From: Smithella sp.
GTDB lineage: Bacteria > Desulfobacterota > Syntrophia > Syntrophales > Smithellaceae
Assembly (NCBI GenBank): GCA_049517435.1
Contig: JBEKRZ010000014.1
Location: 7,443-71,442 of the forward strand
Length of the DNA stretch: 64,000 nt
Direction: 5' to 3'
Positions 22,294-41,470 of this stretch are shown here, piece after piece; position 1 is the first letter of the stretch, and each line of letters opens with the position of its first letter. The notes beneath the pieces are model-generated. The model did not search any database. It was not told the origin of the DNA and saw only the letters and a list, made by a program, of their open reading frames with translations. Both the position numbers and the translations under genes were made by a program.

Positions 22294-22398
22294 TTCTTTT
22301 ACCTCACTTTGTATTTTTACAAACTCACTTTTTTTATGCCATAAGGAACCTGTAAAGTAAATGTAAAATGACAATAAAGAGCTCATCGCCTTTGGGCT

Positions 22399-23247: not shown

Positions 23248-24644
23248 TAAGAAATCTCCTTCAAGTTCTGAATTATCTGTTCCATCTCTCTGGCAAAGGC
23301 GTCGCGGTTTTTGTTTGCCGTTCCGCCGATCTTCAATTCACTCTTCCCTTTTTTATCGGTTCTCAGGGAGATCCATATCTTTTTGTGTGACACGAAAAAA
23401 GCGATCATAATGCCCGCAATCAGCAGCATACTGCCCAACCACACCAGAATCTCTCCCGGATCATTGTTGACCTGAAGTCCGGTATATTTTTTCATTTTCA
23501 AGTCCTTCACCTGGAAATAGTAAGCACCGCCGCGATGTCGATCATATTCGGGATGATCAATAAGGAGCCACAACTCCACGGGTGCCCCTTTAGCCGGGTA
23601 GATGTTGACGCCGATTGCCCGGCCACCTTCCACTCCGTCAGGCAGATGAAAATGTTCCTGATAATCGGCCACCTCCACTTTATCAGTCTCACCGAGAATA
23701 TCAACCTTCCGGTCGAAGGGCGTTGTCATCGTTCCCTTCAGGGAGCCATCTTTGTTCACTACGTCGATCGCCACCTGATCGGGTAGTCCTCCATAGCTGG
23801 ACTGGTAAAAGGTAACCCCTTCGAAAGTCAAGGGATCGTTCACCCGGATTGTTTTTCGGATCACTTCTTTGCCGTTCTGAAAAATTGAGAGATCACTGCG
23901 ATAATCCATCGGGGCTCCGTTGGAATAGAATTCGGCGTGAAACGTATTGCATTTTATCTGAAAATCCAGCTTCTGAATATTTCCGACTCTGGTTTCCAAC
24001 TGCGAAATAGTCTCCCCTTCGAAAATGTTAACATATCCTTTGTAACCGAAAAAAGATCCGCTTATGGCGCCGAGAAAAACCATCAGAATGCTCAGATGGG
24101 TCATAAAGAAAGCCAGGCGGCTATATTTTCCTTTTTCAAAGAAATAATGACGCTCGCCGTCCTCCATCGCGGTTACCACTGGTTTACCGGGAAAGTTCTT
24201 CCCGGCCAACTCCACCATTTTCCTTTCTACGATATCCAGTTGTAGGACATACCGGATCGTTGTAATATTCTGTAAAGATTTTGAAAGTTTTTCGTCAAGA
24301 ATGATGTTATTTTTTCTCATCCCGGCCATGATTCCCCGGTAGCGGTCCATCGTGCAAGCGGTGATGTTCAGGGCTAGCAGCGACAGGCAAGCGACGAACC
24401 ACCAACTATGATACATGTCGAAAAGACCGAGCTTCAAAAACAAGGCAACGGTCCCCGGTTGATAAACCCGGTAATATTCTTGCAGAGGTTTATTTTGTTC
24501 AATCAAAGTTCCAACAATCGAGAATACGGAAAGGATAAGCAAAAGGATTATAACGAGCTTCAGGGATGTCAGAAAATTCCAGAGTTGTGAGATCCAATCG
24601 TTTCCTTTATCTTTTGCCGTCCCTGCCGGCTGGTCAGCAGACAT
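23247..24644 (-). CDS. resB: Cytochrome c biogenesis protein ResB (CcsB/Ccs1)
   Basis: GTLIEQ, DMYHSWWF, THLSIL, IRVNDPL...FYQSSY, DPG motifs. Confidence 0.92.
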   Translation of the reverse strand: MSADQPAGTAKDKGNDWISQLWNFLTSLKLVIILLLILSVFSIVGTLIEQNKPLQEYYRVYQPGTVALFLKLGLFDMYHSWWFVACLSLLALNITACTMDRYRGIMAGMRKNNIILDEKLSKSLQNITTIRYVLQLDIVERKMVELAGKNFPGKPVVTAMEDGERHYFFEKGKYSRLAFFMTHLSILMVFLGAISGSFFGYKGYVNIFEGETISQLETRVGNIQKLDFQIKCNTFHAEFYSNGAPMDYRSDLSIFQNGKEVIRKTIRVNDPLTFEGVTFYQSSYGGLPDQVAIDVVNKDGSLKGTMTTPFDRKVDILGETDKVEVADYQEHFHLPDGVEGGRAIGVNIYPAKGAPVELWLLIDHPEYDRHRGGAYYFQVKDLKMKKYTGLQVNNDPGEILVWLGSMLLIAGIMIAFFVSHKKIWISLRTDKKGKSELKIGGTANKNRDAFAREMEQIIQNLKEIS

Positions 24645-24688
24645 AAAATATTTCCCTTCTCCAGATGATTAATTTCAACAATCTTAAG

Positions 24689-26743
24689 CTACTTTTCTTT
24701 TTTCACAGCGGGGGCTGTCAACAGAGCTTCCACCTTTTGGACATCTCTCTGTACTTGATTAAGAATCGCCATGGCCAGGTCTGGATTGTGAACGCCATTG
24801 GCACTGACTACAAATTTATAAGTATTCCGTGCCTGATTAAGAAGTTTTGCGGCCTCATCAACATCCCGCTTCATTTTGCGGGAGTCGTCCAATTTCCGGC
24901 CAGTCTTTTCAAGCGAATCATAAGTATTCTTTTGCTTCGCCATGATTTCCTGCTTCCATTTGTCGAGAATTTTCACGTGGGCTTCGTCATGGCAGACAAC
25001 GCATGTTGTGGAGATGTTCTTATATGTCTGCTTTTGGGAAAGGTCGTGACAATTGACACACTCAACCTGTCCGGCCTTCACATTTGGCTTTGCTTCCGGT
25101 AATTTTATCGGCAGATTATTGGCAGTAAAGAGCGCAGACTGTTTTTGATGACAGCGCACGCATTGGGTATTTTTCGGGCTGTGGTGACAAGCCATGCAAC
25201 CTTCTTTGGTAATGCTGACCTTTTTATGCTTTTCCGCCGAATGGCAGGTCGTACAACCAAGGCCAAACTCAAAGGCATGGCGTGTGTGCGGCAGTTTGAT
25301 CCCCTGAAAGGAGATCACGTTAGGAAGCTTCACCCCGGCCTTATCGTGGCAGAGTTGGGCGCAATAGCCTCCCCTGATCGGACTTTTTTCGGGAAGGGAG
25401 GGTGCTATCTTCCCGATCGTCCGGAAGAGACTGTTCAGGTCTCTGTCCGCTACCTGGATGAGCTCCGCCGCATAGAAGGGATTATGAACCCCTTTCCCGA
25501 CCTTCACGAAATCGGCATTGTATCTGGCGTCTTCATAAAGTTTTCGGGCCGCCTGAAGTTTTCCTTCGGTTTTGCCCGATTTTTCCAGAACCTGGCGGGC
25601 CGCGTTTAATTTGGGCTCAATATCCCTCTGGATAATATCAAAGGTTTCTTTCCAATCCGTGAGCATTCCTTTGTATTGGTTTCCGTGGCAGTGCGTGCAG
25701 GCCTTTTCCGCAGCCACGAAAGTTCGACCACTTCTCCCGCCGCCCATCTCTGCGCCTTTCGGCTGGATATGGCAGGCCAGACAGTCCACGCGGAAAATGA
25801 ACATGTGACTTGGGGTGGTCGGAACTCCTTTGCCTCTCTCCCCCATGAACATCTCTTTCGGCGCGCTGTGAGTTTCCGCATGGCAGGCATTGCAGCTGTA
25901 TTCCATAAAACGCACTTTAGATGTCTTCATGCTGTGTTTAATTTCATCATGACATCGCGTACAGTTCACTTTTCGTTTGGCGACATGGGTATTGTGCATG
26001 AACGTTACATCATCGTACCTTGCCAGCCTCTCCGGTTCATTGTGACAGTCGTAACATTTTTCCTTATGAGCTAATCCTTCTCCCTGGATGACGTCGAGAT
26101 GACAATTTTCACAGGCGACATGACGTGACCCGGCAAAATCATTATGGTTAAAGGTGAGCCCCTGGAACTGAATATCTTCCTTCGGGTATTCATGGCAGGT
26201 GATGCAATTCCCCAGCGGGAGCATCCCCTTTTGTTCCGGCTTGTGCCGGAAGTGGCAAAGGAAGCAAGTGCTGTCTGTCACCTCAACATGCGTACCCACA
26301 ACAATCTGGGAGTGACAGCTCGTACAGCGCAACTGTTTGCCCCGCCGTAAATCTCCTAAATGAAATTTGTGATCGAAGCGTATTCCCTTTTTATAGATGA
26401 GTTTATTCGACATTAACAAATTCCTGGAATGGCATCCCGCTCGCAGGCAACTGGCATCATCGATCTGGGCGTAGGGCTTGGAGATGTACTTTTTCCTGGT
26501 CACATATTGGACCACGGAATTGATCGCTTGAAACTTAGCCCACCAAAGCTTTTTGGGGTCGGGAGAATAATGGCACAACACGCAGGAGACATCTTTGTGT
26601 TTTGAAGTCTTCCAAGCGTCGTAATAGGGTTTCATAATGTGGCAACTGTTACAAAATCCGGAAGTGGAGGTGTAATAAGCCAGATAGCCTATAACGGCCA
26701 ACCCCAAAACCAAGCAAATGACCAGCACCCGTATCCTTTTCAA
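24689..26743 (-). CDS. Membrane-anchored multiheme cytochrome c (16 CxxCH + CX4CH + CX3CH), NapC/NirT-like N-terminus
   Basis: 16 canonical CxxCH counted, plus CLRAGCH and CAQLCH; N-terminal TM helix. Confidence 0.9.
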   Translation of the reverse strand: MKRIRVLVICLVLGLAVIGYLAYYTSTSGFCNSCHIMKPYYDAWKTSKHKDVSCVLCHYSPDPKKLWWAKFQAINSVVQYVTRKKYISKPYAQIDDASCLRAGCHSRNLLMSNKLIYKKGIRFDHKFHLGDLRRGKQLRCTSCHSQIVVGTHVEVTDSTCFLCHFRHKPEQKGMLPLGNCITCHEYPKEDIQFQGLTFNHNDFAGSRHVACENCHLDVIQGEGLAHKEKCYDCHNEPERLARYDDVTFMHNTHVAKRKVNCTRCHDEIKHSMKTSKVRFMEYSCNACHAETHSAPKEMFMGERGKGVPTTPSHMFIFRVDCLACHIQPKGAEMGGGRSGRTFVAAEKACTHCHGNQYKGMLTDWKETFDIIQRDIEPKLNAARQVLEKSGKTEGKLQAARKLYEDARYNADFVKVGKGVHNPFYAAELIQVADRDLNSLFRTIGKIAPSLPEKSPIRGGYCAQLCHDKAGVKLPNVISFQGIKLPHTRHAFEFGLGCTTCHSAEKHKKVSITKEGCMACHHSPKNTQCVRCHQKQSALFTANNLPIKLPEAKPNVKAGQVECVNCHDLSQKQTYKNISTTCVVCHDEAHVKILDKWKQEIMAKQKNTYDSLEKTGRKLDDSRKMKRDVDEAAKLLNQARNTYKFVVSANGVHNPDLAMAILNQVQRDVQKVEALLTAPAVKKEK

Positions 26744-26781
26744 TGTACCTCTTGATCAGTTCTGTATTTTCAAAGCTTTTC

Positions 26782-28032
26782 CTATGGCTTTATTCGCTCG
26801 TATTGAGGCTTGATGGCGGCCTTGTCATATTTCGAGTGGACAAAATCACCCCGCAGGATGGGGACGGCGATCCTCATGAACATGGTAAAGATAAAGAGCC
26901 CAGAAGCCCATATCCCCAGAGAAATGGCTATTTCATTGATATTCGGCAGGTATTCGTAAATCTCGCCGAGAGGATCGGGAACAAAGCCGGGAACGATCAA
27001 ACCGAGCCCCTTTTCAATCCACACGCCCAAGATGATGAGTAGCGAACCGATATTGAGTGTGATCAGATTATTCCTTGTTCCGGGAATCAGGAAGATCAAA
27101 AAAGCTGCTATATTCATCGCCATGGCCGACCATATCCAGGGAACCAGGGCATGATGACCGTGCACCCCCTGGAAGAGATATTTCATAGGCTCCAGATGAA
27201 TAGTACCTGTATAATACTCCTTGAAGATTTCGGCTCCCAGCAGGAACAAATTGATGAACATGGCGTAGGCCATCAACTCGGCAATCTTGAAAAGCGCCTC
27301 GTTCTTGATTTTCAGCCCCATCGTCTTTCTCAAAATCTGGAAAATAATTAACGCTATGGCCGGCCCGGAACAAAAAGCGCTGGCCAGAAAACGAGGCGCC
27401 AGAATGGAGGCATTCCAGAAGGGTCGGGCGGCAAGCCCGTTGTAGAGAAATGCGGTCACGGTATGAATACCCACTGCCCAGGGAATGGAAAGTAAAACCA
27501 GTGGAATGACGAATTTCTTTACCGGTTCCTTGCGGAAGTACATCTTGATCAGAATATATATCGGAACGATGGCGTTCAGCACCATATAGACGTTCAGAAC
27601 GATCACATCCCAGGCCATAAGTGAACTGGGAAAGGAAAGAATTCCGATAAACGGTATAACATGCCAAAACCGGTCAGGTCTGCCAAGATCGGCCATAATA
27701 AACATCAAGGCCATGATGATGGCCGAAGCGGCAAGAAGCTCTCCCAGAACAACGATTTCTTTGATGGGATCGAAGTGATAGATGTACGCCGGAATAACGA
27801 GGAGCACGGCCGCGGCGGCGACGCCGACCAAATAAGTAAAGTTACCGATATAGAGACCCCAGGAGACCTGGTCTGTCATATTGGTTACAATCAATCCAGC
27901 ATCCAGTTGTTTCGCGTAGAAGCTAATCCCCACACCAATAATAGCCAGTAAAAAAGCACACCAGAAGTAGTAGACCTTCGTCCCGACAAAAACCATTCGG
28001 ACCGTTCTTTTAAAAAATATCCAAGCTTCCAT
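26782..28032 (-). CDS. nrfD: NrfD/PsrC-family quinol oxidoreductase membrane subunit (CbcU/HmcC-like)
   Basis: SWGLYIGNF, DLGRPDRFW, SLMAWD, HTVTAFL; about 10 TMs. Confidence 0.9.
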   Translation of the reverse strand: MEAWIFFKRTVRMVFVGTKVYYFWCAFLLAIIGVGISFYAKQLDAGLIVTNMTDQVSWGLYIGNFTYLVGVAAAAVLLVIPAYIYHFDPIKEIVVLGELLAASAIIMALMFIMADLGRPDRFWHVIPFIGILSFPSSLMAWDVIVLNVYMVLNAIVPIYILIKMYFRKEPVKKFVIPLVLLSIPWAVGIHTVTAFLYNGLAARPFWNASILAPRFLASAFCSGPAIALIIFQILRKTMGLKIKNEALFKIAELMAYAMFINLFLLGAEIFKEYYTGTIHLEPMKYLFQGVHGHHALVPWIWSAMAMNIAAFLIFLIPGTRNNLITLNIGSLLIILGVWIEKGLGLIVPGFVPDPLGEIYEYLPNINEIAISLGIWASGLFIFTMFMRIAVPILRGDFVHSKYDKAAIKPQYERIKP

Positions 28033-28048
28033 GCTGTCCTCTAAAACG

Positions 28049-28951
28049 CTATGCGGAAAAGAAATAATAAAATTTGGGTTCCGCGTTCAAGTCTTCCTTT
28101 AATCGAAAGACCCTTTTATTTTCAATAAGATATCTTATTTCGCTGTTCGGATCGAGCAGGTTCCCGAATTTTCTGGTTCCCGTGGGACAGGCCTCCACGC
28201 AGGCGGGGTAACGCCCATTCCGGACCCGTTGGACACAAAACGTGCATTTTTCCACAACATTTTTCATACGGGGCCGGTTCCCCAGATAATGGACATCCGT
28301 ATTCAACTCTTTCACGGGAATATTGGGCTCGCCCCAGTTAAAAACCCGTCCCTTGTAAGGGCAGGCAGCAATACAATAGCGGCAGCCTATGCACCAATTG
28401 TAATCGACCACCACAATGCCATCCGGTTCCTTCCACGTCGCCTTGACTGGGCATACACGCACGCAGGGTGGATTTTCGCAATGCTGGCATTGAACCGGCA
28501 TGTACATGAACCCCGGCTCCGGCACTGTTTCCGGATTATAGTAGTGTTCGGCATTTTCGAGGTTGATCATACTCCCATTTTTCAATCGGACGACCCTGAT
28601 CCATTGGAGTTGCGGGTTGACCCGGGACTGATTGTTTTCTTTCACACAGGCGTAAACGCACCTTCGGCACCCGATACACCGCGACAGATCAAGGCCATAG
28701 CCCCAGAGAATCCCGGCACCGGCCGGCTTGGTGCTGATTTGAAATTTTTTCCCGTATTTTTTCAGGTACATCTCTTCCAATCGCCGGATAACCTGTTTCT
28801 TCTCTGTCTCAGACATTTCCCGGAAGTTCTTCTGAAGGAACTCTTCCACCTTGTCTTTAGTGCACGCCGAGCTTCCCAGGTAAAGCGCGGCCACGGTGCC
28901 CATGGACATCATCTTTATAAATTCTCTTCTGGTATGCGATCTATCTTCCAT
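28049..28951 (-). CDS. Tat-exported 4Fe-4S dicluster protein (NrfC/CbcT/HmcB-like)
   Basis: TRREFIK twin-arginine motif; CIGCRRCVYAC, CQHCENPPC, CIGCRYCIAACP, CTFC...CVEACP. Confidence 0.92.
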   Translation of the reverse strand: MEDRSHTRREFIKMMSMGTVAALYLGSSACTKDKVEEFLQKNFREMSETEKKQVIRRLEEMYLKKYGKKFQISTKPAGAGILWGYGLDLSRCIGCRRCVYACVKENNQSRVNPQLQWIRVVRLKNGSMINLENAEHYYNPETVPEPGFMYMPVQCQHCENPPCVRVCPVKATWKEPDGIVVVDYNWCIGCRYCIAACPYKGRVFNWGEPNIPVKELNTDVHYLGNRPRMKNVVEKCTFCVQRVRNGRYPACVEACPTGTRKFGNLLDPNSEIRYLIENKRVFRLKEDLNAEPKFYYFFSA

Positions 28952-29438
28952 ATGTCCGTTCCGGTTTGGTTGGTGGGGGTTCCGGTTTCAGGGGTTTGAA
29001 TTTAGGGTCATGGGGATTGTGACAATTCACACAAAGGAAATAAACCCTTTTCCCCCCTTTGAAATATCCGATCCTTTTGCCGTGGATGCCGACTTTCCAG
29101 TCGCGATAGATATTGCCGTGGCACTGTCCGCAGAGCAGGTAGGACTCCGTAAACTTGATGGTGTCCCCATTGGCAAGCTTCAATTTATCCCTGTCGGCTG
29201 GATTGTGACAATCAAGACACCAGCGGTCTTTTTCAGCATGGTGCAGTTTGATGTTGGTATGCTCATCCTTGAGTTCTCTCTTTTTTGCATTGACCTCCAG
29301 CCCCGCATGACAGTTGCTGCAGGGAAATATCCCCTCCGATAATGGGGGCATTAAAACAGGATATTCATCGTGGTGCAATGCGAACGCGGGCACGCCAAAT
29401 GCAATAATTGCGAATAAACATAGGAATCTTATTTTCAT
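28941..29438 (-). CDS. Periplasmic tetraheme cytochrome c (CbcS-like)
   Basis: Signal peptide; CSNCH, CLDCH, CGQCH, CVNCH. Confidence 0.88.
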   Translation of the reverse strand: MKIRFLCLFAIIAFGVPAFALHHDEYPVLMPPLSEGIFPCSNCHAGLEVNAKKRELKDEHTNIKLHHAEKDRWCLDCHNPADRDKLKLANGDTIKFTESYLLCGQCHGNIYRDWKVGIHGKRIGYFKGGKRVYFLCVNCHNPHDPKFKPLKPEPPPTKPERTYGR

Positions 29439-29588
29439 AGACTTTGCTCGTTATCCTCATTTACCCTGCCTGTATCCTTAACTGCGCTTTTTCAACAATC
29501 CGCTACTGCGGATACCGGAAGGGGAAATAGCCAACCTAATAAAGCAATCTCAAATTATTAAATTTCTTTTACCCGGCAAAGATTAAAA

Positions 29589-29617
29589 ATCTTAAGTGAT
29601 AATTTTTATAGAGTCAA
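29589..29617 (-). promoter_or_regulatory. Sigma70-type promoter candidate for the tetraheme-to-maturation operon
   Basis: Minus strand TTGACT-N17-TAAGAT, 150 bp upstream of the start at 29438. Confidence 0.45.
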
Positions 29618-29728
29618 GAAGAGAAAAATATGAGGAGAAAAATATGTTCTTATTTTGTTCATTTGTGAACCAGCAATACCGTGGCATTTTCAACCATCGC
29701 CCGCTTCTTTTCCGTAAAGACTGTCCAT

Positions 29729-29758
29729 AAAAAAATCCCCGCCTGTTTCCAGGCGGGG
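29729..29758 (-). terminator. Rho-independent terminator after the omcB-like gene
   Basis: 9-bp stem CCCCGCCTG/CAGGCGGGG with 4-nt loop followed by a T-run on the minus strand. Confidence 0.8.
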
Positions 29759-29797
29759 CCGGTTAGATCAGCAGATCAAAAACTGCCGTGGTTAAGA

Positions 29798-32179
29798 TTA
29801 TGGACGCTCCGGAGAGCTCCATCCGCCGGTTGTGTGACTCCATCCGATCAGGTAAAGCATGGCTTCCGTGGTGCCGGGCGCCAAGGTGGTCAGCGTGCTG
29901 TCCGTGTACGCCGTTGCTCCCTTGCCGAAGAGGCCGTAGACAGGGGAGCCCACAGTGCCCGACAAAGCCAGAGCAGTGGCGCCCACCGACCCGTTCATCA
30001 GACCATCGTCAAGATAGTCGATGGTATCATAGAGTAACCTGCGGGAGTATGTGAGGGCATGGGCGTATGCTCCCGGCTCTCTCTTTAAGAATACAATATT
30101 GGAAACAGCTCCCATCACTCTGGCTTTGTTGTACCCTGCTCCCAGGATAGTCATAGCCGCCGTCCAGTCCGCTGCTGCCGCTTCTGTCAACGTCGGTAGC
30201 GCACTGGTTTTGTATGCCCTCACAAAATCAGGCAAATCTCCTCCCTCACTAGTAATTGTGATGCCTGTATTCTTATCATTAAAAACTTTAATTGCAAGCG
30301 AAAGAGCAGCCTGATAGGCTTCGGACTGTGGCCCCAAGAAGTATTGATTGAAGTCCGCGATCATCGTGATAGCATGACCTCCTTTCGAGGTGTGGCAATT
30401 ATTACAGACAGTGGTGATAGTCTTTTGATCAATAGTTAGGCTATGGTTGCCGGGAGTACGATGGCAGGCTACGCAAGGACCGTTGGCCGTCAGATTTGTC
30501 TGGGATGCAGTGATACCATGATCGCCAATTATTGTCGGCGTCCCCAGTTTCCGGTGGGTACTGGTAATGGTTCCACCATCCTGATCAGATAAAAGAGAAG
30601 TGTCAATTGTTACACCGGGAAGAGCACCCGGAGCAAACGTAATGAAGCCCATTTTGATATACATGGTTGCGGCCGCCTGCAGATAGTGGGTTCGTTGATA
30701 GTTCGTGCTTGTGTCGGTGATAGCACCGGGGTCCTTCTCCCGGGAATCATGACATGCAATACAAATATTGGATGCGGCAATATCGGGGTACCGCAGCTTA
30801 CCGTAATTGAGCGTGTATCCCGGCGGATTCCAGCCCAGATCTGTGGTGTAATTGGTTGTTGGATTGGCATCTTTGAGCGTGCGCAATATACCTGCGCCGG
30901 GATTCGTATGGCAACCATAGCATTTAAGAGGTCCTGCGGCAATTGTACCCGGATTGGTGGTTAAATTTTCAAAGAAGTAAGAGAATCCTTCCGTCGTATG
31001 ACATCGTCCACAGATCCCCGAATTGTGACCGCCGAAAGGACCGCCGGCAACTGTGGCCGCCATAACGGCGTCCACCTGCGCTGTGCTTTTAACAACGAAT
31101 GGTGCAGCCGCGGCATATTTCGCTGTAAGCAATCCGCGGGCATGACCAGACTGCGCCCAATCGGTATAAATTGTTGCCTTTGCAGGATCGTAGGACACAG
31201 ATGCCGGATCGTTATTACTATTTGTCATGGCATTATGGCCGTGACAATCGTAACAGGGATTCGGATTGATGGATCCGTTTGGCAATGTTAACCGTATCCC
31301 ATAGCCTGTTATGTTCCCTGCTACCAGGGCTGCCGGATCCTGGTAATGAGTGGTGCCTATTATCCGGTACCACGAGGTCTCATGATGACCGACTAAAGCG
31401 GTACCCGATGCCACCGTACCGGAACCCATAAGAAGACCGGTTGGGTTTGTATAGCCGTGGCATTGCGTACAGAGACGGAACTGGTCATTGAGGGGACTTG
31501 CTAAACTGCTCGTAACGGAACCAACCGTCGTACTGGGATTCCAGGTTGCATCCACACGAAGTTTTTTGGAATCATGCGTCATATGGCAGGTATCGCACTG
31601 GATCGGCCTGAGATCAGTTACTGTGCCCGGCGCGTTTACTCCGGCCGCCATGACTGTCCCGTCGCCGGTGAAATTGGACATAGCGGACAAGACGGCACCC
31701 ACGTGGGTGTGGCAGCGATTGCACGGTGCTGCTGCTTCTATTTGGACGCCAAGGTGTTTGGAGGTGGAATAGGCTGTACACAATTGATAGTTAGTGGCAA
31801 GAATCACCGTGGACAGGGCCGATATGTCCCCCCCGGTAATGGCTACACCGTTGTTGTGGCAAACGGCGCACTGCACATAATTGGGGTCCGGATAGGGAAT
31901 CGGGCCTACACCATTGTGCGATCCGCCATTTCCGTGGCAGGCCTGGCAGCCTACTGAATTAAGAGCGTGGACCGACGTGTCGTATGTCGTGACGATCGAA
32001 TAACCCGTCAGAGTTTCAAGCGTTGTACTGTGGCACGTCGTGCAGGCCGTGTTGTCAACAGCAGACACCACACCTGAGTCGTCACCATCCCTGTTCGACG
32101 AACCACAGCCGCTTATAAGCAGCAACGACAAGACCAACGCCATAATCGAAGCGAAACCAACATATCTTTTTTTGTTCAT
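29798..32179 (-). CDS. omcB: 12-heme outer-membrane lipoprotein cytochrome c, OmcB/OmcC-like
   Basis: Lipobox LISGC; 12 CxxCH counted; N-terminus ACTTCHS..ETLTG.S...GCQACHG.G..HNGVGPIP matches the OmcB pattern as I recall it. Confidence 0.85.
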   Translation of the reverse strand: MNKKRYVGFASIMALVLSLLLISGCGSSNRDGDDSGVVSAVDNTACTTCHSTTLETLTGYSIVTTYDTSVHALNSVGCQACHGNGGSHNGVGPIPYPDPNYVQCAVCHNNGVAITGGDISALSTVILATNYQLCTAYSTSKHLGVQIEAAAPCNRCHTHVGAVLSAMSNFTGDGTVMAAGVNAPGTVTDLRPIQCDTCHMTHDSKKLRVDATWNPSTTVGSVTSSLASPLNDQFRLCTQCHGYTNPTGLLMGSGTVASGTALVGHHETSWYRIIGTTHYQDPAALVAGNITGYGIRLTLPNGSINPNPCYDCHGHNAMTNSNNDPASVSYDPAKATIYTDWAQSGHARGLLTAKYAAAAPFVVKSTAQVDAVMAATVAGGPFGGHNSGICGRCHTTEGFSYFFENLTTNPGTIAAGPLKCYGCHTNPGAGILRTLKDANPTTNYTTDLGWNPPGYTLNYGKLRYPDIAASNICIACHDSREKDPGAITDTSTNYQRTHYLQAAATMYIKMGFITFAPGALPGVTIDTSLLSDQDGGTITSTHRKLGTPTIIGDHGITASQTNLTANGPCVACHRTPGNHSLTIDQKTITTVCNNCHTSKGGHAITMIADFNQYFLGPQSEAYQAALSLAIKVFNDKNTGITITSEGGDLPDFVRAYKTSALPTLTEAAAADWTAAMTILGAGYNKARVMGAVSNIVFLKREPGAYAHALTYSRRLLYDTIDYLDDGLMNGSVGATALALSGTVGSPVYGLFGKGATAYTDSTLTTLAPGTTEAMLYLIGWSHTTGGWSSPERP

Positions 32180-32205
32180 GGCCGATTCTCCTCACCAGTA
32201 TTAAA

Positions 32206-32901
32206 TTAATACGTTATATGACATTTTCTACAGGTTCTTCCTTTACTGTCATTTTTATACTTGTTCATGATGGATTTCCAATTTCGGGGATGGGGATTCA
32301 CCTTCCCACTGCTGTGGCACTGGATACAGACATCCGCATCCGGATGACAAGATTCGCAGGACTGCAGGTTCCTTCGCGCTTCGGACGCATGATCCGAATT
32401 CCAGTTATATATCTGCGAGGTGCCGGCCGGCCGGTGTGATTTTATTTTCATGCTGCCCTTATTCCGTATCTTGGTGTGACAGTCCTGACAGAAACTCGAC
32501 TCGTGGCAGCGATAGCAATTCTGGGGGTTATCCTTAGCCTTTATAGAATGGATAGAGATAAAATCGGAGCGATGCGTCTTGGGCATATACTCCCCCTTGG
32601 TCGACAGACTTTTCTTCAAATCAGGTTCAATGCCTCCGCCTTTGTGGCAATCTAAACAGAAGGATTGTTGATGGCAATCCGCACAATTGTTCCCCGCCTT
32701 TTGGGCCAGCAACCGATGTTCTTTCACAAAGAAATCACCGTGATTGGCTATCACGCCAACGCTGCTGTGACAAACCGGGCAGTCACTAAGTGCTACATCC
32801 TTGAATTCTCTGTGGTCGGTCCTGGCAAAGGAGAGACAGACGACCAAGAGAAGTAAGGCTGTGGACAACAGTATAATTTTAAATGCCTTATTATTTATCA
32901 T
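32206..32901 (-). CDS. omaB: Periplasmic 8-heme cytochrome c, OmaB-like
   Basis: Signal peptide; 8 CxxCH counted; located between the porin and the OmcB-like gene. Confidence 0.8.
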   Translation of the reverse strand: MINNKAFKIILLSTALLLLVVCLSFARTDHREFKDVALSDCPVCHSSVGVIANHGDFFVKEHRLLAQKAGNNCADCHQQSFCLDCHKGGGIEPDLKKSLSTKGEYMPKTHRSDFISIHSIKAKDNPQNCYRCHESSFCQDCHTKIRNKGSMKIKSHRPAGTSQIYNWNSDHASEARRNLQSCESCHPDADVCIQCHSSGKVNPHPRNWKSIMNKYKNDSKGRTCRKCHITY

Positions 32902-32918
32902 GGTCTCCCCTCATAAGT

Positions 32919-34385
32919 TCAATAATTGATATTAATGGCCACAAAGCCTTTATAACTGTTGTTATAGTTGAAATTGATATCGTCCTCAACCTTCATGCTT
33001 ACAGTTATGATCTTACTGAATTCGTAATTGACACCTGCCCAGTATTTTTCCGCATTTCCATCGCGGGAGTCATACCTTCTGAAATCATCATAATCGATTC
33101 CGGCCATAAGAGCCATCTTGGAGATCTTATACTCACCATAAAGTCTGATGCCGCTGAGACCGTCGGTATAACCGCTCCTTATTTCATAGGTCGCATTAAT
33201 GGTTAGATCTTTGATCGGACGGGCAAGAAAACCAACGTCATAGACATTGGCAATCGCACTATCGCTGTTACCGATATTACCACTAAAATCTTCCCGGGCG
33301 TATTTAACGCTGACCCGGTACTTGCTGGTCAATTGATACTCGGCGGAAATGCTCTGTTCCTTGTACTGGTCGACGGCAAAAACACTGTAAAGGGAGGAAG
33401 TGTCAAACGTAGGATAACTTTCATAATACTCGCCGCGAAGGGTTAAATCTTGGAGAGGGGTGACTTTTGCGCCAAAAAGCATCTCATTGAACGATTCTGA
33501 AATAGTGTCATATTTCAACCGCGCGTAAAAATTAACCATACCACTGATAGGGGTGGTGGAAAAATCCAGACCAACGTTTTCGCGCGCTAACAGGCTGTCG
33601 CCATCGGCCTCACAATATTTCCTTCCATAACTCACTTCGACATGCGTATTTTTTATTGTATCCAGATAAACGCTCATTCCGATGAGGCCATCCCCTCGAG
33701 TGCCCGTCTCTGTCTTATCTGCAAATATCACATTTCTCCCGCCGAAAAAAGTAATCCCCATCGGACCCAGATTTTTCAGATCCATGTGGATACCATCTAT
33801 GGTTCCGGAAACCGCCGCTTCATTTACAAAGGTTCTGCCGGCTCTTAAATCGAGATGTTCATTGAAGGCATCCCGGTAATCCAGGTAAAAATAATACAAC
33901 CTTCCTTGGAAATCTTCATCATGATCCGTCCAGAGTTCTTTGATAGCCCTTCCGTATGCGTAAAAGTTGATCTTCCCTTCCTTGTCCAGATTGGTGACAT
34001 TCATCCGCAAATACTGGGCAAAATCCTGGATGCTCTTCTCCCTATCGACCGCCAACAAATCCTGATACCAAAGATATTGCGTGGAACTCGTCAGCTTTAC
34101 CTCCGCCCGCTGAGGACTTCGAGGCGGGTTCTCCTGCTCCGGCTTTTTCACCTCCTGCTGAAGGCTTCTAGGCGTCTTATCTTGTTCCGGTTCTTTTATC
34201 TTTTGTTGAGGACTTTGAGGTGAGTTATCATCAAGGGCGTCTTCTGCGTCGGGTGCATTAAATCCCCTTAGAGTAAGCTGCGTCTTCTTAATTGGTTCCT
34301 GTGCCATAATGGGTATGGCCACAAATAGCATACACGTAAAAAATACTACTGACAATGAACCAATAAATATCCTACTTTTCATCAT
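32919..34385 (-). CDS. ombB: Outer-membrane beta-barrel porin-like protein, OmbB-like
   Basis: Signal peptide, alternating amphipathic beta-strand pattern rich in Y/F/G, C-terminal aromatic (AININY), no CxxCH; assignment relies on synteny. Confidence 0.72.
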   Translation of the reverse strand: MMKSRIFIGSLSVVFFTCMLFVAIPIMAQEPIKKTQLTLRGFNAPDAEDALDDNSPQSPQQKIKEPEQDKTPRSLQQEVKKPEQENPPRSPQRAEVKLTSSTQYLWYQDLLAVDREKSIQDFAQYLRMNVTNLDKEGKINFYAYGRAIKELWTDHDEDFQGRLYYFYLDYRDAFNEHLDLRAGRTFVNEAAVSGTIDGIHMDLKNLGPMGITFFGGRNVIFADKTETGTRGDGLIGMSVYLDTIKNTHVEVSYGRKYCEADGDSLLARENVGLDFSTTPISGMVNFYARLKYDTISESFNEMLFGAKVTPLQDLTLRGEYYESYPTFDTSSLYSVFAVDQYKEQSISAEYQLTSKYRVSVKYAREDFSGNIGNSDSAIANVYDVGFLARPIKDLTINATYEIRSGYTDGLSGIRLYGEYKISKMALMAGIDYDDFRRYDSRDGNAEKYWAGVNYEFSKIITVSMKVEDDINFNYNNSYKGFVAININY

Positions 34386-35064
34386 TATCCTTTGGTTAAA
34401 GCGTCCCCAAATTTATTCGCTGTTCTCGATTATATTACAATAACCAGTATGACAATGTGACGAAAATGCAATGCGTTAATATATTAGTTGTACACAACAG
34501 CAATTCTTATAAAAAATTATCGCTTAATCCCTATGATTATATTAATATTAAACTACAGTAGAATAATTATTTTTATTCGCATGAGAAGAGTAATGGCACG
34601 CCAAGAGCCATCAAAATTACAAAATATTTCATCCCCTTCATTGCCAGCAATCTTAGTTATTTCTAATACTATATTTTATCTTTTACATGCTTGCTAACAT
34701 TAGGTGGTTCTAATAATTTTGATAGGAAATAAGACGATATTTAAAATGTAAAGTATTTCTGTTATTTATGTCAAGAAGTATTTTGCAGCTTATGAATTTT
34801 TCTATTTTTCTTGACGCCGCCTCAAAAAAGCGAACAAATAATAGTTGACTGGTCAGACCATTTACCCGTTGGCTATTTTATGGAGGCATTTTAAAGGGCG
34901 GACGAAAAGTGTGAAACCAAGTGGGGTGTATTTTTGATATTTATCATATGGCATAAATCATGTTTATTGTGAAACTCAAATTGCGAAAACGGAGCGCATA
35001 ACCTAAACAACCTGAATAAGCTGAAGGTCACGCGGGGTCACACGTCGTAATTTTTAAACTAAAC

Positions 35065-35625
35065 TTAAACTTTAACACGCTCCACATCACCGGTGATGCA
35101 GCCGATATCCATTATAAGCTTGCAATGCGGCATCGGGATCCCTATCAGTGTTGTAGCGATGAATTCCGATATAATGCCGCACTGCTTGATGGTGTCGAGA
35201 TAAACATACCGGGTTACAGCGGAGCCCTTTGTGGTGATGACGCCGGATTGAAGTACCTCAACGCCGTTTGCTTTCATCTGTTCAAGTTTCTTGTCGTAAC
35301 CCGTCACGGTAAACCCGAGATGATGGATGCCGCCGCCGCTTTTCGCGAGCATATCCGAATAAACGTTCTCATCTTTGCTTTTTACCTGGATAAGCTCGAT
35401 CTCCACACCGCCCTGAAATGCAAGTACGATATCTGCTTCGACATTGATGGGTTTTCCCCGATAGATGGTTTCATGTTTTACGGTGTTTGAGCTATACCAT
35501 GGTCCGATGTTGAGGAGTTTTGCATAATAGGCCACCGCTTCCGGTATGTCCTTAACAAGGATGCCGATCTGGTCTACGTTGGGAAGTTTCATTTGGCTGA
35601 TGCTGCTAATGTCCGGTTGTTTCAT
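35065..35625 (-). CDS. VOC family protein (methylmalonyl-CoA epimerase-like)
   Basis: DQIGILVKD, IELIQ, GIHHLGF, YLDT...IISEF. Confidence 0.85.
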   Translation of the reverse strand: MKQPDISSISQMKLPNVDQIGILVKDIPEAVAYYAKLLNIGPWYSSNTVKHETIYRGKPINVEADIVLAFQGGVEIELIQVKSKDENVYSDMLAKSGGGIHHLGFTVTGYDKKLEQMKANGVEVLQSGVITTKGSAVTRYVYLDTIKQCGIISEFIATTLIGIPMPHCKLIMDIGCITGDVERVKV

Positions 35626-35639
35626 TAATGCTCCCTTTC

Positions 35640-36854
35640 CTATTCAAAGCTGACAGCTGTTTTCATCGCCCGGTTGACGTCTTTCTTTAAATTGATCTCG
35701 ATCAATTCCCTGTATTTTTCCAGCGGGAACTTGTGTGTAAGCATGTTCTCCACCTGTATTTTTTTGGATGAAATCAAATCAATGGCCATTTCAAATGTAT
35801 GCTTTTTGACTCCAGCGATATTGTTGTAACGGTAGCCGTAGCAACCTTTGACGGTCTGCAGCTTAAGCCACAACGTCGTGAGATCTAGTTTTACCTCCTT
35901 GCCGATGCCGATGACGGAAAGCGTGCCGTTTGTAGCCGTGACGCGCAGCGCCATATTCAAGGTGTCGGCGTGCCCAACAGTATCATAGACCTTGTCGAAG
36001 CCGCCCATCACTACACGTTCTCCCAACAGGGGTTGATAGGCGCGTCCACCGGCAATCTCTACGGCAGCGTCGATGATTCCGCCTTTGATGGTCCGGTTGG
36101 CTCCGCATTTTTTTATATGCTCAGCCGCGAAAGTAGATGGTTCGACAACTGTGATATCACAGCCGCTGTCCAGCGCGCGCATGCACTTGACCACCATGGC
36201 GCCAATGACGCCGCCGCCGATAACCAGCACCTTGTCTGTGTCCTCCGGACGGTTGTCCAACACAGCCTGCAAACCCACTGCCAGGGGTTCGATCAGGGCT
36301 GCCGATTCCGGCGATACGCCGGCTGGTATTACGTGGATCTGGCTCTTATGTGCCACGACATACTCGGCAAATCCGCCGTTGATGTCTTTGCAGATGCCGA
36401 TGAACATGCCCGGCGAGAAAGCTCCTTCGGCGAAATTATCGCAATTGGCCGTTGATCCGGCGGCACAGCTCCGGCATATCGGCGCGATGTCGCGTGTATA
36501 ACAGTTGAGGGCGGGAACGACCGTAACGAGATCGCCGGTTTTGCAATTCTCAACCTCTTTGCCGGTCTCAACGATCTCACCGCAGAATTCGTGTCCCGGC
36601 ACGCAGGGAAAAGACGTGAAGGGTGATGCGGTCGGCGAATCCTTCAGGAAAAGGAGATTTATATCGCTGCCGCAGACACCGCAGAATTTTATTTTTATCT
36701 TTACCCACTCAGGCGACGGGAGCGTTGGTTCCGGTATATCGACAAGTTTCACCGTGGAGAAAGGTCCCCGGTAACAGAAGCTTCCGCTGATGGGCCGCAG
36801 CGCCTGGATGATTAAAAATTTGGGTACATTAACATTAAATTGAAGTGCTTTCAT
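35640..36854 (-). CDS. Zn-dependent alcohol dehydrogenase (MDR family)
   Basis: CGVCGSD, GHEFCG, structural Cys cluster, GGGVIG NAD-binding motif. Confidence 0.9.
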   Translation of the reverse strand: MKALQFNVNVPKFLIIQALRPISGSFCYRGPFSTVKLVDIPEPTLPSPEWVKIKIKFCGVCGSDINLLFLKDSPTASPFTSFPCVPGHEFCGEIVETGKEVENCKTGDLVTVVPALNCYTRDIAPICRSCAAGSTANCDNFAEGAFSPGMFIGICKDINGGFAEYVVAHKSQIHVIPAGVSPESAALIEPLAVGLQAVLDNRPEDTDKVLVIGGGVIGAMVVKCMRALDSGCDITVVEPSTFAAEHIKKCGANRTIKGGIIDAAVEIAGGRAYQPLLGERVVMGGFDKVYDTVGHADTLNMALRVTATNGTLSVIGIGKEVKLDLTTLWLKLQTVKGCYGYRYNNIAGVKKHTFEMAIDLISSKKIQVENMLTHKFPLEKYRELIEINLKKDVNRAMKTAVSFE

Positions 36855-36946
36855 TGAACGTCTCCCTGAACATTTTTTGGTATCTACATTTTACCATTTA
36901 TAAATCAAAGATAACATCGCGGCGATAAGGCGCATAAATCTGCCAA

Positions 36947-37085
36947 ATCCCCCTGTCTCCCCCTTTACAAAAGGGGGAATTTTCTAAATTGAATTTTTTC
37001 CTTAGCCCCTTCTACCAAAGGAGGATTTCTCTAAAAGAAATTTTCCCTTAAACCCTCCTTTTCTAAAGGAGGGTTAGGGAGGATT
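36947..37085. repeat. Three tandem C-rich/G-rich hairpins (REP-like)
   Basis: CCCCCTTTACAAAAGGGGG, CCCCTTCTACCAAAGGAGG, AACCCTCCTTTTCTAAAGGAGGGTT. Confidence 0.65.
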
Positions 37086-37171
37086 TTTTTAATATTTAGA
37101 AAACCGCCTACGACCCAGGCATGCGCCGGGCTTCGCTGCCAACAAAGCTAGCGTTTTAATTTAAACCGGTC

Positions 37172-38842
37172 TTATTCCATCTTCAACGCCTGATAGAACA
37201 ATACCGTTGCGGGACTGGTGACGGTCGGGTCGGTCATCACATTCACGCAGGCCGGTTTCCCGGATTCAAAAGCGCGTTTGAGCGCGGGAATGATATCCTC
37301 ATCCTTTGTGACAAATTCGCCATATCCACCCAGACCTTCTACCATCTTTTCATAGTGTCTTGTGCCCAGTTCCGCGCACTGGAGCCTTTCGGGGCCAATG
37401 GACATTTCCTGAGAGTGTTTGATCATGCCCCAGGCGCAGTCATTATTGACCACGCACACTATCGGAATATTGAGTCGCACCATCGTGTCGAATTCCATGG
37501 CATTAAAGCCGAAAGATCCGTCGCCGTTGAGCAGCAATACCTTCATCTCCGGCCGCGCCAGCTTGGCAGCCATGGCGAAGGGAATGCCGGTGCCGAGGCA
37601 ACCGAGAAGACCCGCAGATGAACCGATAACGCCGGCTTTATGTTTCGACATAAACCCGACAAGGCCGAAATAAGAAGTGTCGCCGCCGTCAACAACGTAT
37701 AGCGCATCATCGCCAACATATTTCCTGATTTGCTCAGCCAGGCGGATCGGGTGAATGGGTTCGGATACCGCCTGACGGATTTTAAGTTCCCCGTCAATCA
37801 TGGATAGGCTTGCCGCTTTCAGCGTTTTCACCCATTCGCCGTGATCCTTTTTATTGAGCAGTGGATTAAGCTGACCCAGCACGGAACCGCAATCGCCGAC
37901 AAGTCCGACATCGGCCTGCCTGTTCCGGTCGATTTCATGCGGGTCGATATCAATCCGCACAATCTTGGTTGTGGGCGGAATAACGTTGCCCGACTGGAGC
38001 AGCCAGTTGAGGCGAAGCCCTGCAATGACAATTACATCAGCTTGGGCAGCGGTCACCATGATACCGACGTTGCCACAATCCCAGATGGAAAGAGGATGGT
38101 TGTCGGGAAGCGTTCCCCTGCCGTGATTGAGGAGAATAAAGGGTATCCCCGTTTTATCAATAAATTGTCCGAGGCAATCCGTGCAGGAGCTGAATCCTAC
38201 GCCGGTTCCGCCGAGAAACAACGGCTTCTTGGCGTTGTTGATGATATCCGCTGCTGCTTTCAGATCGGCATCGTCGGGATGAACCGTGTATTTCCGCGTG
38301 GGCCGGCTTGGCATCGGCGCCAGGGATTCATCAATTTTTATGCCGAGGATATCGGGTGGCAGTTCCAGGAGAACAGGGCCTGGCCTCCCCGATGTAGCCT
38401 GCCGGAAGGCGATCGCCAGATATTCCGGTATCCGCTTAGTCTCGTAACAGGTGGCAGCCCATTTGGTAATGGGCTTGACTACGTCCATCTGATTCATTTC
38501 CTGAAGCGCTCCCTTCAGATCTTCCTTCAGCGGGTGCTTGCCGCAAAGCACCACCAGCGGCGCGTTATCAAGGTAGGCGTTCGCAATTCCCGTAAGACCG
38601 TTGGTAAACCCCGGCCCTGCAGTCAGAAAGCATACTCCGGGTTTGCCTGTATAAACATACCAGGCATGCGCCATCATTGCCGCGGCCTGCTCATGCCGAA
38701 CGTCAATGGTACGAATCTTGTATTGAGTAAAGCCATCCAGAATCGCCTCCAGATGTCCGCCGGAAATGCCGAACACAATTTCAACCTTTTCCACCTCTTT
38801 TAAATATTTGCCTACAAGATGACCGCCATTAATAGTTCCCAT
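37172..38842 (-). CDS. Thiamine-diphosphate-dependent enzyme (acetolactate synthase-like; HACL/IlvBL-type)
   Basis: DVRHEQAA, TAGPG, GDGSFGFNAMEFDT...NNDCAWG ThDP motif. Confidence 0.88.
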   Translation of the reverse strand: MGTINGGHLVGKYLKEVEKVEIVFGISGGHLEAILDGFTQYKIRTIDVRHEQAAAMMAHAWYVYTGKPGVCFLTAGPGFTNGLTGIANAYLDNAPLVVLCGKHPLKEDLKGALQEMNQMDVVKPITKWAATCYETKRIPEYLAIAFRQATSGRPGPVLLELPPDILGIKIDESLAPMPSRPTRKYTVHPDDADLKAAADIINNAKKPLFLGGTGVGFSSCTDCLGQFIDKTGIPFILLNHGRGTLPDNHPLSIWDCGNVGIMVTAAQADVIVIAGLRLNWLLQSGNVIPPTTKIVRIDIDPHEIDRNRQADVGLVGDCGSVLGQLNPLLNKKDHGEWVKTLKAASLSMIDGELKIRQAVSEPIHPIRLAEQIRKYVGDDALYVVDGGDTSYFGLVGFMSKHKAGVIGSSAGLLGCLGTGIPFAMAAKLARPEMKVLLLNGDGSFGFNAMEFDTMVRLNIPIVCVVNNDCAWGMIKHSQEMSIGPERLQCAELGTRHYEKMVEGLGGYGEFVTKDEDIIPALKRAFESGKPACVNVMTDPTVTSPATVLFYQALKME

Positions 38843-39540: not shown

Positions 39541-39883
39541 AATGATGCCCAAGTTTCAGAAACAAAGTGCACTGAAGCTTGCTGGACGAATTATACTAGG
39601 TGCTAAGCGCCGTGGTAAAACGAACGAAGTGAAGTAGTGAGACTCAAACTTCAGTAACGAAGTGAACTGAAGTTTCTAAGTCGAACTATCCCCTGAACGT
39701 AGTGAATGGGGATTTGAAGCGTAAGGCGTAGTGAGACTCTCTGAAAACGAGCATTGCGAAATTTGAAGAGTTAGTCGAACTATCCAATAGCCTTTGGCTA
39801 TTGGGAATTATCCCACGTGCTAAGCCAAGTGGGACTATAACAAAGTACACCGCAGCTTGCTTTAGGGTTTCATACCCGTGATA
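39541..39883 (+). repeat. Largest modular repeat array (locus C, about 6 units)
   Basis: Successive units begin (T)AATGATGCCC / TAGTGAGACTC and end in GAA(C/T)TATCC-hairpin; match loci A, B, F, G. Confidence 0.85.
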
Positions 39884-39969: not shown

Positions 39970-41256
39970 TCATTTATAATGATCATCTTGCGCGTAAAGA
40001 AAACAATCTATCCTTGCTGCCTCCCATCTATCCTGCAATGCAGGAACTTCACCAGTTCTCTTAACAGAAGATGCTATTGAATCAAGTTTGTCTAGTTTTT
40101 CTTTTTTAGATACTGATTTTTTACCCAACTTACTTTCTTGTAGTGTTCCAAAAGTAGCTTTAGGTCCTAGTTGCGGAAATTTTTGCATAGCAGGATTGAC
40201 TCTATCTATATAACTTCCCAGCATTGATAAAGCACTTGAGTAAACGCCTTTACCTAGAAAACTGGCAACAATAAGCATGTTGCCTACGCTATCATTATTA
40301 GGACGGTTCCTAATAGTTTCAAGTAAGTTTTCTTTTATTTGCGGTGCTTTTATATTTTTTATCCAGTAAAAGGCTGGTACATCACACCATAGAGAAAATT
40401 GAAATATAGCAAGTTTGTGTTTCTCCCTAACATTAATTATATTTCTATCAGCATACCATCTCCACAAAACCACAGATGAGGGCATGGACTCGGATTTTCC
40501 TCTAGACAAAACCGACCAAGCTGCAATCTCTTCTTCAAAACCTTCAGGTGCAACGGTAAAACTCATACCTTTTATTGCGATTGCGTCTGGAGAGTCTTCA
40601 ATTATAAATCGTTTAGCTTCCTTATCACCTTTGTCCTTAGATAGAATAAAAACGTTACTACTTGCAGGTGATTGAACTACTCTTGCGACTTTTTCCGATA
40701 ACGAATTTCTGAACTGATCAATTCTACGTTCTATAATATCACTTAAGTCTCTAGAATCCACTAGGTGATTTCCACCACTTTGCCTAACATACATTGTTCC
40801 TTTTTGTAGTACTGTTTTTGGTTTTCCACTTGTATGATCAAATATGCCATCCTTGCTAATCATATGAGTTAGGCCGATAGATTGCGGTATATAGATAATT
40901 ACTATAGAAAAGCCGTCTATTTTAAATTCTTTCGCGCGCAATCCAATTATATGTGGTTCTAAGTGCCTATTTATTTTTTGATGCACATTATTTGCGTCCT
41001 TAAGTATGCCAACTATGTTCTTTGATAATCCAACAATTTGCTTTTCGCTGTTATTTATACCAAACACCAGATAGCCGCCGTAAGTATTAGCAAAGGCCGA
41101 AATATCTTTTGTTATTTCTAGCCAATCTTTTTCAGATGCAGGGTCAATTGTTAGTTTATAATCGACCCTATCATCTTCCTCGGCGTATTCGGCAAGAAAC
41201 AAAGCTGTTTTGCGTGTAAGAGGATCTTTTCTTCGTAAGTGATCTATAACGCTCAT
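39970..41256 (-). CDS. Schlafen AlbA_2 domain protein with uncharacterised C-terminus
   Basis: EDDRVDYKL...EITKDISAFANTYGGYLVFGI...IVG AlbA_2 signature; visibly AT-rich. Confidence 0.85.
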   Translation of the reverse strand: MSVIDHLRRKDPLTRKTALFLAEYAEEDDRVDYKLTIDPASEKDWLEITKDISAFANTYGGYLVFGINNSEKQIVGLSKNIVGILKDANNVHQKINRHLEPHIIGLRAKEFKIDGFSIVIIYIPQSIGLTHMISKDGIFDHTSGKPKTVLQKGTMYVRQSGGNHLVDSRDLSDIIERRIDQFRNSLSEKVARVVQSPASSNVFILSKDKGDKEAKRFIIEDSPDAIAIKGMSFTVAPEGFEEEIAAWSVLSRGKSESMPSSVVLWRWYADRNIINVREKHKLAIFQFSLWCDVPAFYWIKNIKAPQIKENLLETIRNRPNNDSVGNMLIVASFLGKGVYSSALSMLGSYIDRVNPAMQKFPQLGPKATFGTLQESKLGKKSVSKKEKLDKLDSIASSVKRTGEVPALQDRWEAARIDCFLYAQDDHYK

Positions 41257-41470
41257 TATCAAAGTCCTTTTAAATAAAAGTGAAAGAAGAAAAATTAATA
41301 AGGGCTAAACTGTTCCCTTACGATAAGGGTTTTATGGTCTGACGTAAAGCATAGAGTCAGGTCTTGAAATATCAGTTTTCAGACACCAGTTAATATTATG
41401 TAGTTCTTTAATGAAGTGCAGCGAATAATACTATTTCTAAAAAACAATGCAAGAAAAAAGAGGGTAGTAT

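Follow-up and report, generated by a model that had tools for sequence, protein, structure and literature searches.

A predicted Geobacter-type porin-cytochrome conduit in a Smithella genome

In Geobacter sulfurreducens PCA, the genes for the porin-cytochrome (Pcc) complex OmbB-OmaB-OmcB form tandem clusters with identical barrels and identical octahaem proteins, which is a published hallmark of this strain (PMC4282303, Liu et al. 2014). The purified Geobacter complex has 20 haems and moved electrons across a bilayer to Fe(III) (PMC4282303). More broadly, Pcc porins are predicted to have 18–22 strands, Pcc clusters are often linked to extra inner-membrane or periplasmic cytochromes, and the outer cytochromes do not co-evolve with the porin and the periplasmic cytochrome, which do co-evolve with each other (PMC4245776; Shi, Fredrickson and Zachara 2014). 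Here we describe a related trio of genes from Smithella sp. (assembly GCA_049517435.1). The trio lies in a 64,000-nucleotide stretch of contig JBEKRZ010000014.1, which we analyzed as a whole and call the window; positions are those of the window unless another contig or locus is named. The best explanation of the trio, to which we give a probability of about 0.78, is a 20-haem Geobacter-type Pcc conduit whose function is predicted.

The original prediction for this region was a beta-barrel gene, then a gene with 8 CxxCH motifs, then a lipoprotein gene with 12, closed by a strong terminator. This order is borne out by the open reading frames (ORFs), the motif counts, the lipobox, and a structural model of the barrel (Table 1). 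All three genes are co-directional, with spacers of just 17 bases between the barrel and 8-haem genes and 26 bases between the 8-haem and 12-haem genes. In a Pfam scan, the barrel gene had a weak match to Porin_4 (E = 3e-4). The AlphaFold2 model of the barrel, which was built with 47 homologues, has 22 beta-strands in residues 95–487, mostly with pLDDT above 90, and residues 1–93 are disordered except for the helix of the signal peptide. With 22 strands, the barrel is within the published range for Pcc porins. Outer-membrane barrels were the sole type of match when we searched with this model using Foldseek. The terminator is as strong as had been claimed: 40 bases past the stop codon of the 12-haem gene there is a hairpin with a 9-bp stem (8 G-C pairs) and then a T-run, with a folding energy of –29.7 kcal/mol (z = –4.2 relative to shuffled sequences). 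The sequence of the terminator occurs only once in the genome.

Because there is no curated hidden Markov model (HMM) for the Pcc family and no solved structure for any component, we judged membership by pairwise and profile homology together with synteny. A scan of species-representative genomes gave 67 related loci, from Geobacterales, Desulfuromonadales, Nitrospirota, and Syntrophales. The order of barrel, 8-haem protein, and 12-haem protein is kept in about 50 of these 67 loci. For a direct comparison, we used G130, a genome from the Geobacteraceae that was obtained from a search in the family of Citrifermentans bremense. G130 contains two tandem Pcc clusters; the two barrels (403 amino acids) are 100% identical, as are the two octahaem proteins (231 amino acids), and the 12-haem proteins have 744 and 768 amino acids. 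From these hallmarks alone, we infer that G130 is G. sulfurreducens-like.

All three proteins from the window are homologous to those of G130. The barrel is 39.7% identical to the OmbB-like protein (E = 5e-89); the octahaem protein is 50.7% identical to the OmaB-like protein (E = 2.5e-82), with the same length of 231 amino acids; and the dodecahaem protein is 31.4% identical to the 744-residue OmcB-like protein (E = 1e-93). All 8 and all 12 CxxCH motifs share alignment columns with those of G130. The dodecahaem protein is also 32% identical (E = 9e-72) to a protein that NCBI names OmcB, and it has hundreds of full-length relatives, including proteins from Geomonas and from Geobacter sp. M21. 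The barrel and octahaem genes have their closest counterparts in metagenome-assembled genomes (MAGs) from the Syntrophaceae or Syntrophales; for instance, the barrel is 74% identical to that of a Syntrophaceae MAG. The homology to Geobacter-type Pcc proteins and the synteny support the prediction that these three genes encode a Geobacter-type Pcc trio. The complex itself is a known kind of machine.

The residues expected to bind haem are conserved as well. In a 13-sequence alignment of the 12-haem protein, all 12 CxxCH motifs and the lipobox Cys25 are invariant. In a separate comparison, 9 histidines of the 12-haem protein outside of the motifs were invariant too. All 16 histidines of the octahaem protein (8 of them outside of the motifs) are unchanged across 9 homologues and would suffice for eight bis-histidine haems. 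As an aside, the OmaB-like proteins at three loci from Desulfuromonadales or Desulfobulbaceae (L027, L046, and L049) have 10 CxxCH motifs, with the two extra motifs at fixed positions in the alignment.

The trio is part of a 14.8-kb island (approximately 20312–35062). To either side of the island (35063–38102 and 18627–20310), the window is collinear with G044, a genome from the same genus, with 89–91% DNA identity and with flanking genes that are 90–96% identical. We set the bounds of the island by where the homology to G044 stops and resumes. Between the same flanks, G044 has a different cluster of 9.1 kb, which encodes a decahaem MtrA-like cytochrome, an MtrB/PioB porin (PF11854, E = 6e-79), a tetrahaem cytochrome, an Fe-S protein, an NrfD protein, a monohaem cytochrome, and ResB/CcsA. 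ResB and CcsA from the window are 29% and 52% identical to their counterparts in G044. The Pcc island replaces the Mtr-type island that is found at the same site in this congener. We saw the replacement in G044, the only congener whose flanks match. At the edges of the island, we found neither direct nor inverted repeats of at least 12 bases, and the ORFs that were scanned on both sides had no integrase-like or transposase-like matches, which fits an exchange by recombination in the flanks.

The distribution of the two types of porin within the family is uneven. Of the 116 species genomes of the family, this one alone has the Pcc barrel. In the order as a whole, 12 of 339 genomes have it, and 10 of these 12 belong to one other family (best identity 77%). 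The MtrB/PioB porin (PF11854) is present in 23 of the 116 genomes of the family, or about a fifth, and a search of the window's own genome for PF11854 found no match.

The original prediction also suggested that the trio was horizontally acquired, and noted that the omcB-like gene was richer in GC than the AT-rich region upstream. Horizontal acquisition of the island is supported by the synteny, the distribution, and the phylogeny (see below). The GC cue holds numerically (52.6% for the 12-haem gene, but around 31% for the upstream spacer), and the 12-haem gene also exceeds the other two genes of the trio (44–46%) and the genome mean (43.4%). However, the excess is at the second codon position: the GC2 of the 12-haem gene (0.526) is at the 99th percentile of the genome, while its GC3 (0.54) and its codon-usage deviation are ordinary for the island, in which the eight genes that we scored (from the barrel to ResB) are mildly GC3-rich. 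The excess at the second position therefore reflects a protein that is rich in Gly, Ala, Thr, Ser, and Cys. Since this is amino-acid composition, it proves no transfer by itself, and we rejected GC content and codon usage as evidence of transfer.

Several other features of this site and of the Mtr-type islands were seen along the way. Ten genomes from the genus carry a porin of the MtrB/PioB family. In G044 (locus L104), G046 (L101), and G048 (L103), the cluster consists of the MtrA-like decahaem cytochrome, the porin, the tetrahaem cytochrome, the Fe-S protein, NrfD, the monohaem cytochrome, and ResB/CcsA. The flanks of the Mtr-type island differ between G044 and G046/G048, so this island seems to be mobile too. 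A repeat of about 60–90 bases has three copies in the window (16921–16977, 18561–18621, and 39541–39633) and matches, at 89–93% identity, a copy at the edge of the Mtr-type island of G044 (L104, 2940–3064). There is also a second indel near the Pcc island: about 4.9 kb of the window (13725–18627), with six ORFs including a TetR-family regulator (17785–18363), has no counterpart in G044. Finally, the alcohol-dehydrogenase and glyoxalase-family frames that adjoin the island in G044 (L104, 969–2572) are shortened to 229 and 122 amino acids, as compared to 404 and 186 amino acids in the window; these two genes may be frameshifted in G044.

The barrel gene itself is a chimera, with a leader at its 5' end that derives from a porin gene native to the genus. 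Outer-membrane proteins of the PF13557 family in 15 congeners have N-termini that match the leader at 40–56% identity (E = 1e-13 to 1e-27). At the DNA level, this homology (67–74% identity) begins 5–69 bases before the start codon and stops about 280 bases into the gene, near 34106. All of the other Pcc barrels align only from residue 88–94 onward, so the end of the leader homology coincides with the start of the homology to other Pcc barrels. Among the relatives that we compared, only the locus L086 shares the chimeric leader with the window. There is no other signal peptide before the mature barrel, so the fusion is needed for export. We considered whether the island had inserted into the native PF13557 gene, but in six congeners that gene is elsewhere, so we rejected this idea.

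The window's own genome retains a PF13557 paralogue with a different leader on another contig (C42:5339–7100); this leader is longer and has PKAVEE repeats. More generally, in the PF13557-family (Phenol_MetA_deg) protein of the congeners (L069–L085), the N-terminal region, which precedes a coiled coil and the barrel, is exchangeable. The type of leader that the congeners have on this protein is the type that is fused to the window's Pcc barrel.

At the other end of the trio, the omcB-like gene is an exchanged cassette with a history that is separate from that of the other two genes. In the trees of the barrel and of the octahaem protein, the window groups with Syntrophales-type sequences (support of 100). 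In the tree of the 12-haem protein, the window and L086, L087, and L089 are together the sister of the Geobacteraceae (support of 99), and the Syntrophales partners of the barrel and octahaem protein fall in the other main clade. Forcing the trees to be congruent was rejected by approximately unbiased (AU) tests (p-AU = 5e-45, 2e-14, and 4e-51), for clades that we named after seeing the trees.

The ends of the cassette can be seen by comparison to two Syntrophales MAGs, L090 and L091, whose octahaem proteins belong to the same 90%-identity cluster as the window's. Starting at 34107, the DNA is homologous to that of L090 up to about 32074, or about 35 codons into the 12-haem gene, and there the homology is lost. 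Homology to the Syntrophales relatives is absent from about 32074 to 29764 and resumes, at 95% identity, in the terminator hairpin. The 12-haem proteins of L090 and L091 are 38–39% identical to the window's. A similar pattern is seen in the rate of synonymous substitutions (dS) relative to L086, which has the same order of genes in its island: dS is 0.14–0.20 for the barrel, octahaem, Fe-S, 16-haem, ResB, and CcsA genes, 0.37 and 0.49 for the tetrahaem and NrfD genes, and 0.96 for the 12-haem gene.

The L090 locus is a differently wired version of the cluster. Ahead of the Pcc trio (3956–7267 of L090) are genes for a histidine kinase and for two response regulators, one of them sigma-54-dependent; the locus lacks the quinol module but has a gene for a small c7-type cytochrome nearby. 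Prompted by these two-component and sigma-54 genes, we searched for a sigma-54 site upstream of the window's trio and found none. Sigma-70-like sites are present in the upstream spacer, but they are not significant.

Table 1. Features of the Pcc island, by position in the 64,000-nucleotide window.
Feature	Position	Strand	Details
AT-rich upstream spacer, presumed promoter region of the trio	34386–35062	minus	~31% GC; right end is the island boundary
Chimeric leader of the barrel gene	34107–34385	minus	signal peptide and disordered Pro/Gln/Glu/Lys-rich linker; residues 1 to ~93
OmbB-like porin gene	32919–34385	minus	488 amino acids; no CxxCH
OmaB-like periplasmic octahaem cytochrome gene	32206–32901	minus	231 amino acids; exactly 8 CxxCH; Sec signal peptide
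OmcB-like dodecahaem lipoprotein cytochrome gene	29798–32179	minus	793 amino acids; exactly 12 CxxCH; lipobox LISG-C25
Intrinsic terminator of the trio; conserved 3' anchor of the omcB-like cassette	29737–29758	minus	
Tetrahaem periplasmic cytochrome, first gene of the quinol module	28941–29438	minus	165 amino acids
DsrO/NrfC-like periplasmic 4Fe-4S protein	28049–28951	minus	twin-arginine leader, RREFIK motif
NrfD/DsrP-like integral membrane quinol-interacting subunit	26782–28032	minus	Pfam NrfD, E = 8e-38
Membrane-anchored 16-haem cytochrome	24689–26743	minus	16 CxxCH; NrfH/NapC-like N-terminal domain (NapC/NirT and NrfH matches)
ResB and CcsA (System II cytochrome c maturation)	22399–24644	minus	xenologous to the pair in congener G044
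SurA-like chaperone	21607–22386	minus	near the left end of the island
Sirohaem-synthase-like NAD-binding protein	20525–20980	minus	left end of the island (20312–22386)

Beyond the terminator and a spacer of about 360 bases, seven genes on the same strand follow the trio, from the tetrahaem cytochrome to the SurA-like chaperone. The Fe-S protein scores slightly below the cut-off of NCBIfam's DsrO model (195.6 bits instead of 200), and the NrfD-like protein scores above the cut-off of the DsrP model (409.6 bits; the cut-off is 350). The SurA-like gene accompanies the island in L086, L087, L090, and L091. In this 3.1-Mb assembly (61 contigs, 98% complete), every ORF with two or more CxxCH motifs lies within this single island. 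We also asked if the island brought cytochrome c maturation to a lineage that had none, and rejected this, as ResB is found in 96 of the 116 genomes of the family. The genome does encode type IV pilins, but only about 7% of the residues of the short pilin are aromatic, so we do not argue for conductive pili. In a stretch of lower GC, a few kb upstream of the island, there is a gene for a 430-residue protein with a Schlafen/AlbA_2 domain (39970–41262).

How might the complex work? The OmaB-like octahaem cytochrome would be threaded from the periplasm into the 22-strand OmbB-like barrel, and inside or at the barrel it would meet the OmcB-like dodecahaem cytochrome, which would be lipid-anchored and exposed at the surface. 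The source of electrons would be the menaquinol pool, via the island's own module: either the 16-haem NrfH-like cytochrome or the complex of NrfD, the Fe-S protein, and the tetrahaem cytochrome. Electrons would then exit to an external acceptor; candidates in peat are Fe(III) minerals, humic matter, conductive particles, and methanogen partners. With no other multihaem cytochrome in the genome, the OmcB-like protein would be the terminal reductase at the surface. The formation of the complex, its topology, the direction of electron flow, and the acceptor are all predicted from sequence. That the conduit is functional, as originally claimed, is suggested by the intact reading frames, the conserved haem ligands, and purifying selection.

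Some of our results weigh against the Pcc conduit as we have described it, including the naming of G130 and of the AU-test clades, as mentioned above. Curated HMM libraries contain generic cytochrome and porin domains only and no Pcc model, so membership rests on homology. In a sequence search of the PDB, the 12-haem protein had no match and the barrel had one by chance only, and no structure of a Pcc component has been solved. Unlike in G. sulfurreducens, no TetR-type OrfR/OrfS gene adjoins the trio: the barrel gene is preceded by a 680-base spacer and, beyond it, by a glyoxalase-family gene, and the sole TetR gene is outside of the island. (OrfR/OrfS are a feature of the G. sulfurreducens clusters and are not universal to Pcc clusters.) We found no RNA run with the gene. 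Lastly, some bacteria with Pcc clusters reduce neither Fe(III) nor Mn(IV) oxides (PMC4245776), so the acceptor, and even the direction of flow, may differ from what we predict.

The same complex could run inward, with electrons from Fe(II), reduced humics, or a cathode-like mineral or partner cell entering the quinone pool, as proposed for PioAB and MtoAB. Haem wires are reversible in principle, Pcc clusters are found in organisms that do not reduce metal oxides (PMC4245776), and the island of G044 is of the MtrB/PioB family, which includes systems from Fe(II) oxidizers. We nevertheless consider inward flow to be unlikely. The host is a Smithella-like syntroph, and the bottleneck for syntrophs is the disposal of electrons, not their supply. 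The closest characterized homologue, OmbB-OmaB-OmcB, works outward (PMC4282303, PMC4589669), and we saw no CO2-fixing or Fe(II)-oxidizing context in the island.

Alternatively, the cluster might be a recently acquired passenger that is silent or decaying and has no present function. This would fit with its rarity in the family and with the absence of transcript data. But all nine frames are intact, all of the haem motifs and distal histidines are conserved, and dN/dS relative to L086, which has the same island, is 0.08–0.24 for all nine island genes, which indicates purifying selection. Also, the octahaem protein belongs to a 90%-identity cluster with 66 members from across metagenomes, and contigs that are nearly identical to the trio are found in many runs from peat and wetland, with nearly identical DNA in permafrost metagenomes as well. 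We think that a silent passenger is a little less probable than inward flow. A mis-binned contig, which would make the Pcc-bearing syntroph an artefact of assembly, might be suspected because the assembly is in 61 contigs and the island is atypical for the family, but is very improbable because both flanks are collinear, on the same contig, with a genome of the same genus and because the barrel's leader is otherwise found only in outer-membrane genes of this genus; the estimated contamination is also just 0.38%.

Smithella-type syntrophs are treated as partners of methanogens that transfer hydrogen or formate. Stimulation of Smithella-type syntrophs by magnetite or carbon nanotubes is among the reports that are cited in PMC7695907. 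This stimulation has had no genetic basis so far, and the locus offers a complete and testable path by which electrons could leave the quinol pool of a peatland syntroph and reach its surface. In the literature that we searched, we found no paper that links Smithella or Syntrophales to Pcc or Mtr genes. Relative to that literature, what is new is the Smithella-like host from peat, the replacement of an Mtr-type by a Pcc-type system at a single site, and the mosaic at two levels, with a native leader and an exchangeable surface cytochrome. Because 23 of the 116 genomes of the family have the Mtr type and this one alone has the Pcc type, at the same site as in G044, the family is a natural experiment on the preference for one type of conduit or the other. 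The cassette-like exchange of the surface cytochrome could be a handle on specificity for acceptors or partners.

We can also imagine a broader scenario, which we offer tentatively and with the odds somewhat against it. The site between the glyoxalase and amidohydrolase genes might be, across the genus, an exchangeable slot for modules for extracellular electron transfer. Modules with non-homologous conduits of the Mtr/Pio type or the Pcc type, each with its own quinol and maturation genes, would be swapped whole when their conserved flanks recombine. Within the Pcc module, a second-level cassette would carry the surface cytochrome, running from the conserved 5' end that encodes the lipobox to the conserved terminator. 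These exchanges would tune syntrophs that rely on hydrogen or formate to the acceptors or electric partners that are available in peat.

It's useful to compare the locus to each of the known systems. The Mtr-type systems (MtrAB, PioAB, and MtoAB) follow the same functional logic, with a haem wire inside an outer-membrane barrel, and it is a system of this type, in G044, that occupies the exact chromosomal site of the window's Pcc island. However, they are not homologous in sequence, and the window's barrel does not match PF11854. Their barrels have 26–28 strands, as opposed to 22 in the window, and they have 10 (+10) haems instead of 8 + 12.

OmbB-OmaB-OmcB from G. sulfurreducens is much more similar. 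The order of porin, periplasmic cytochrome, and lipoprotein is the same, the haems add up to 20 in both (8 + 12) with every motif in register, the octahaem proteins are equally long, and the context of the lipobox is G-C-G-S in both. The clusters of G. sulfurreducens have TetR-type OrfR/OrfS and a tandem duplication, and the window's trio has neither. The window's barrel bears a foreign leader of about 93 residues, and its 12-haem protein is one of a "long" clade whose members are extended at the C-terminus by about 50 residues. Also, OmcB from G. sulfurreducens hands its electrons on (PMC4282303), while the window's OmcB-like protein would be terminal, as its host has no nanowire cytochromes or other multihaem cytochromes to serve as onward carriers. 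And the window's trio is joined, in one island, to a quinol module and to ResB/CcsA.

Finally, the locus is similar to the Pcc clusters surveyed in PMC4245776 in that additional cytochromes are linked to it and in that the outer cytochrome is decoupled from the pair of porin and periplasmic cytochrome. That survey lists no Syntrophales, which is the order that this locus is from. In the window, the exchange of the outer cytochrome can be traced to its breakpoints, one directly behind the lipobox region and one at the terminator, and it is also seen between genomes whose octahaem proteins belong to a single 90%-identity cluster.

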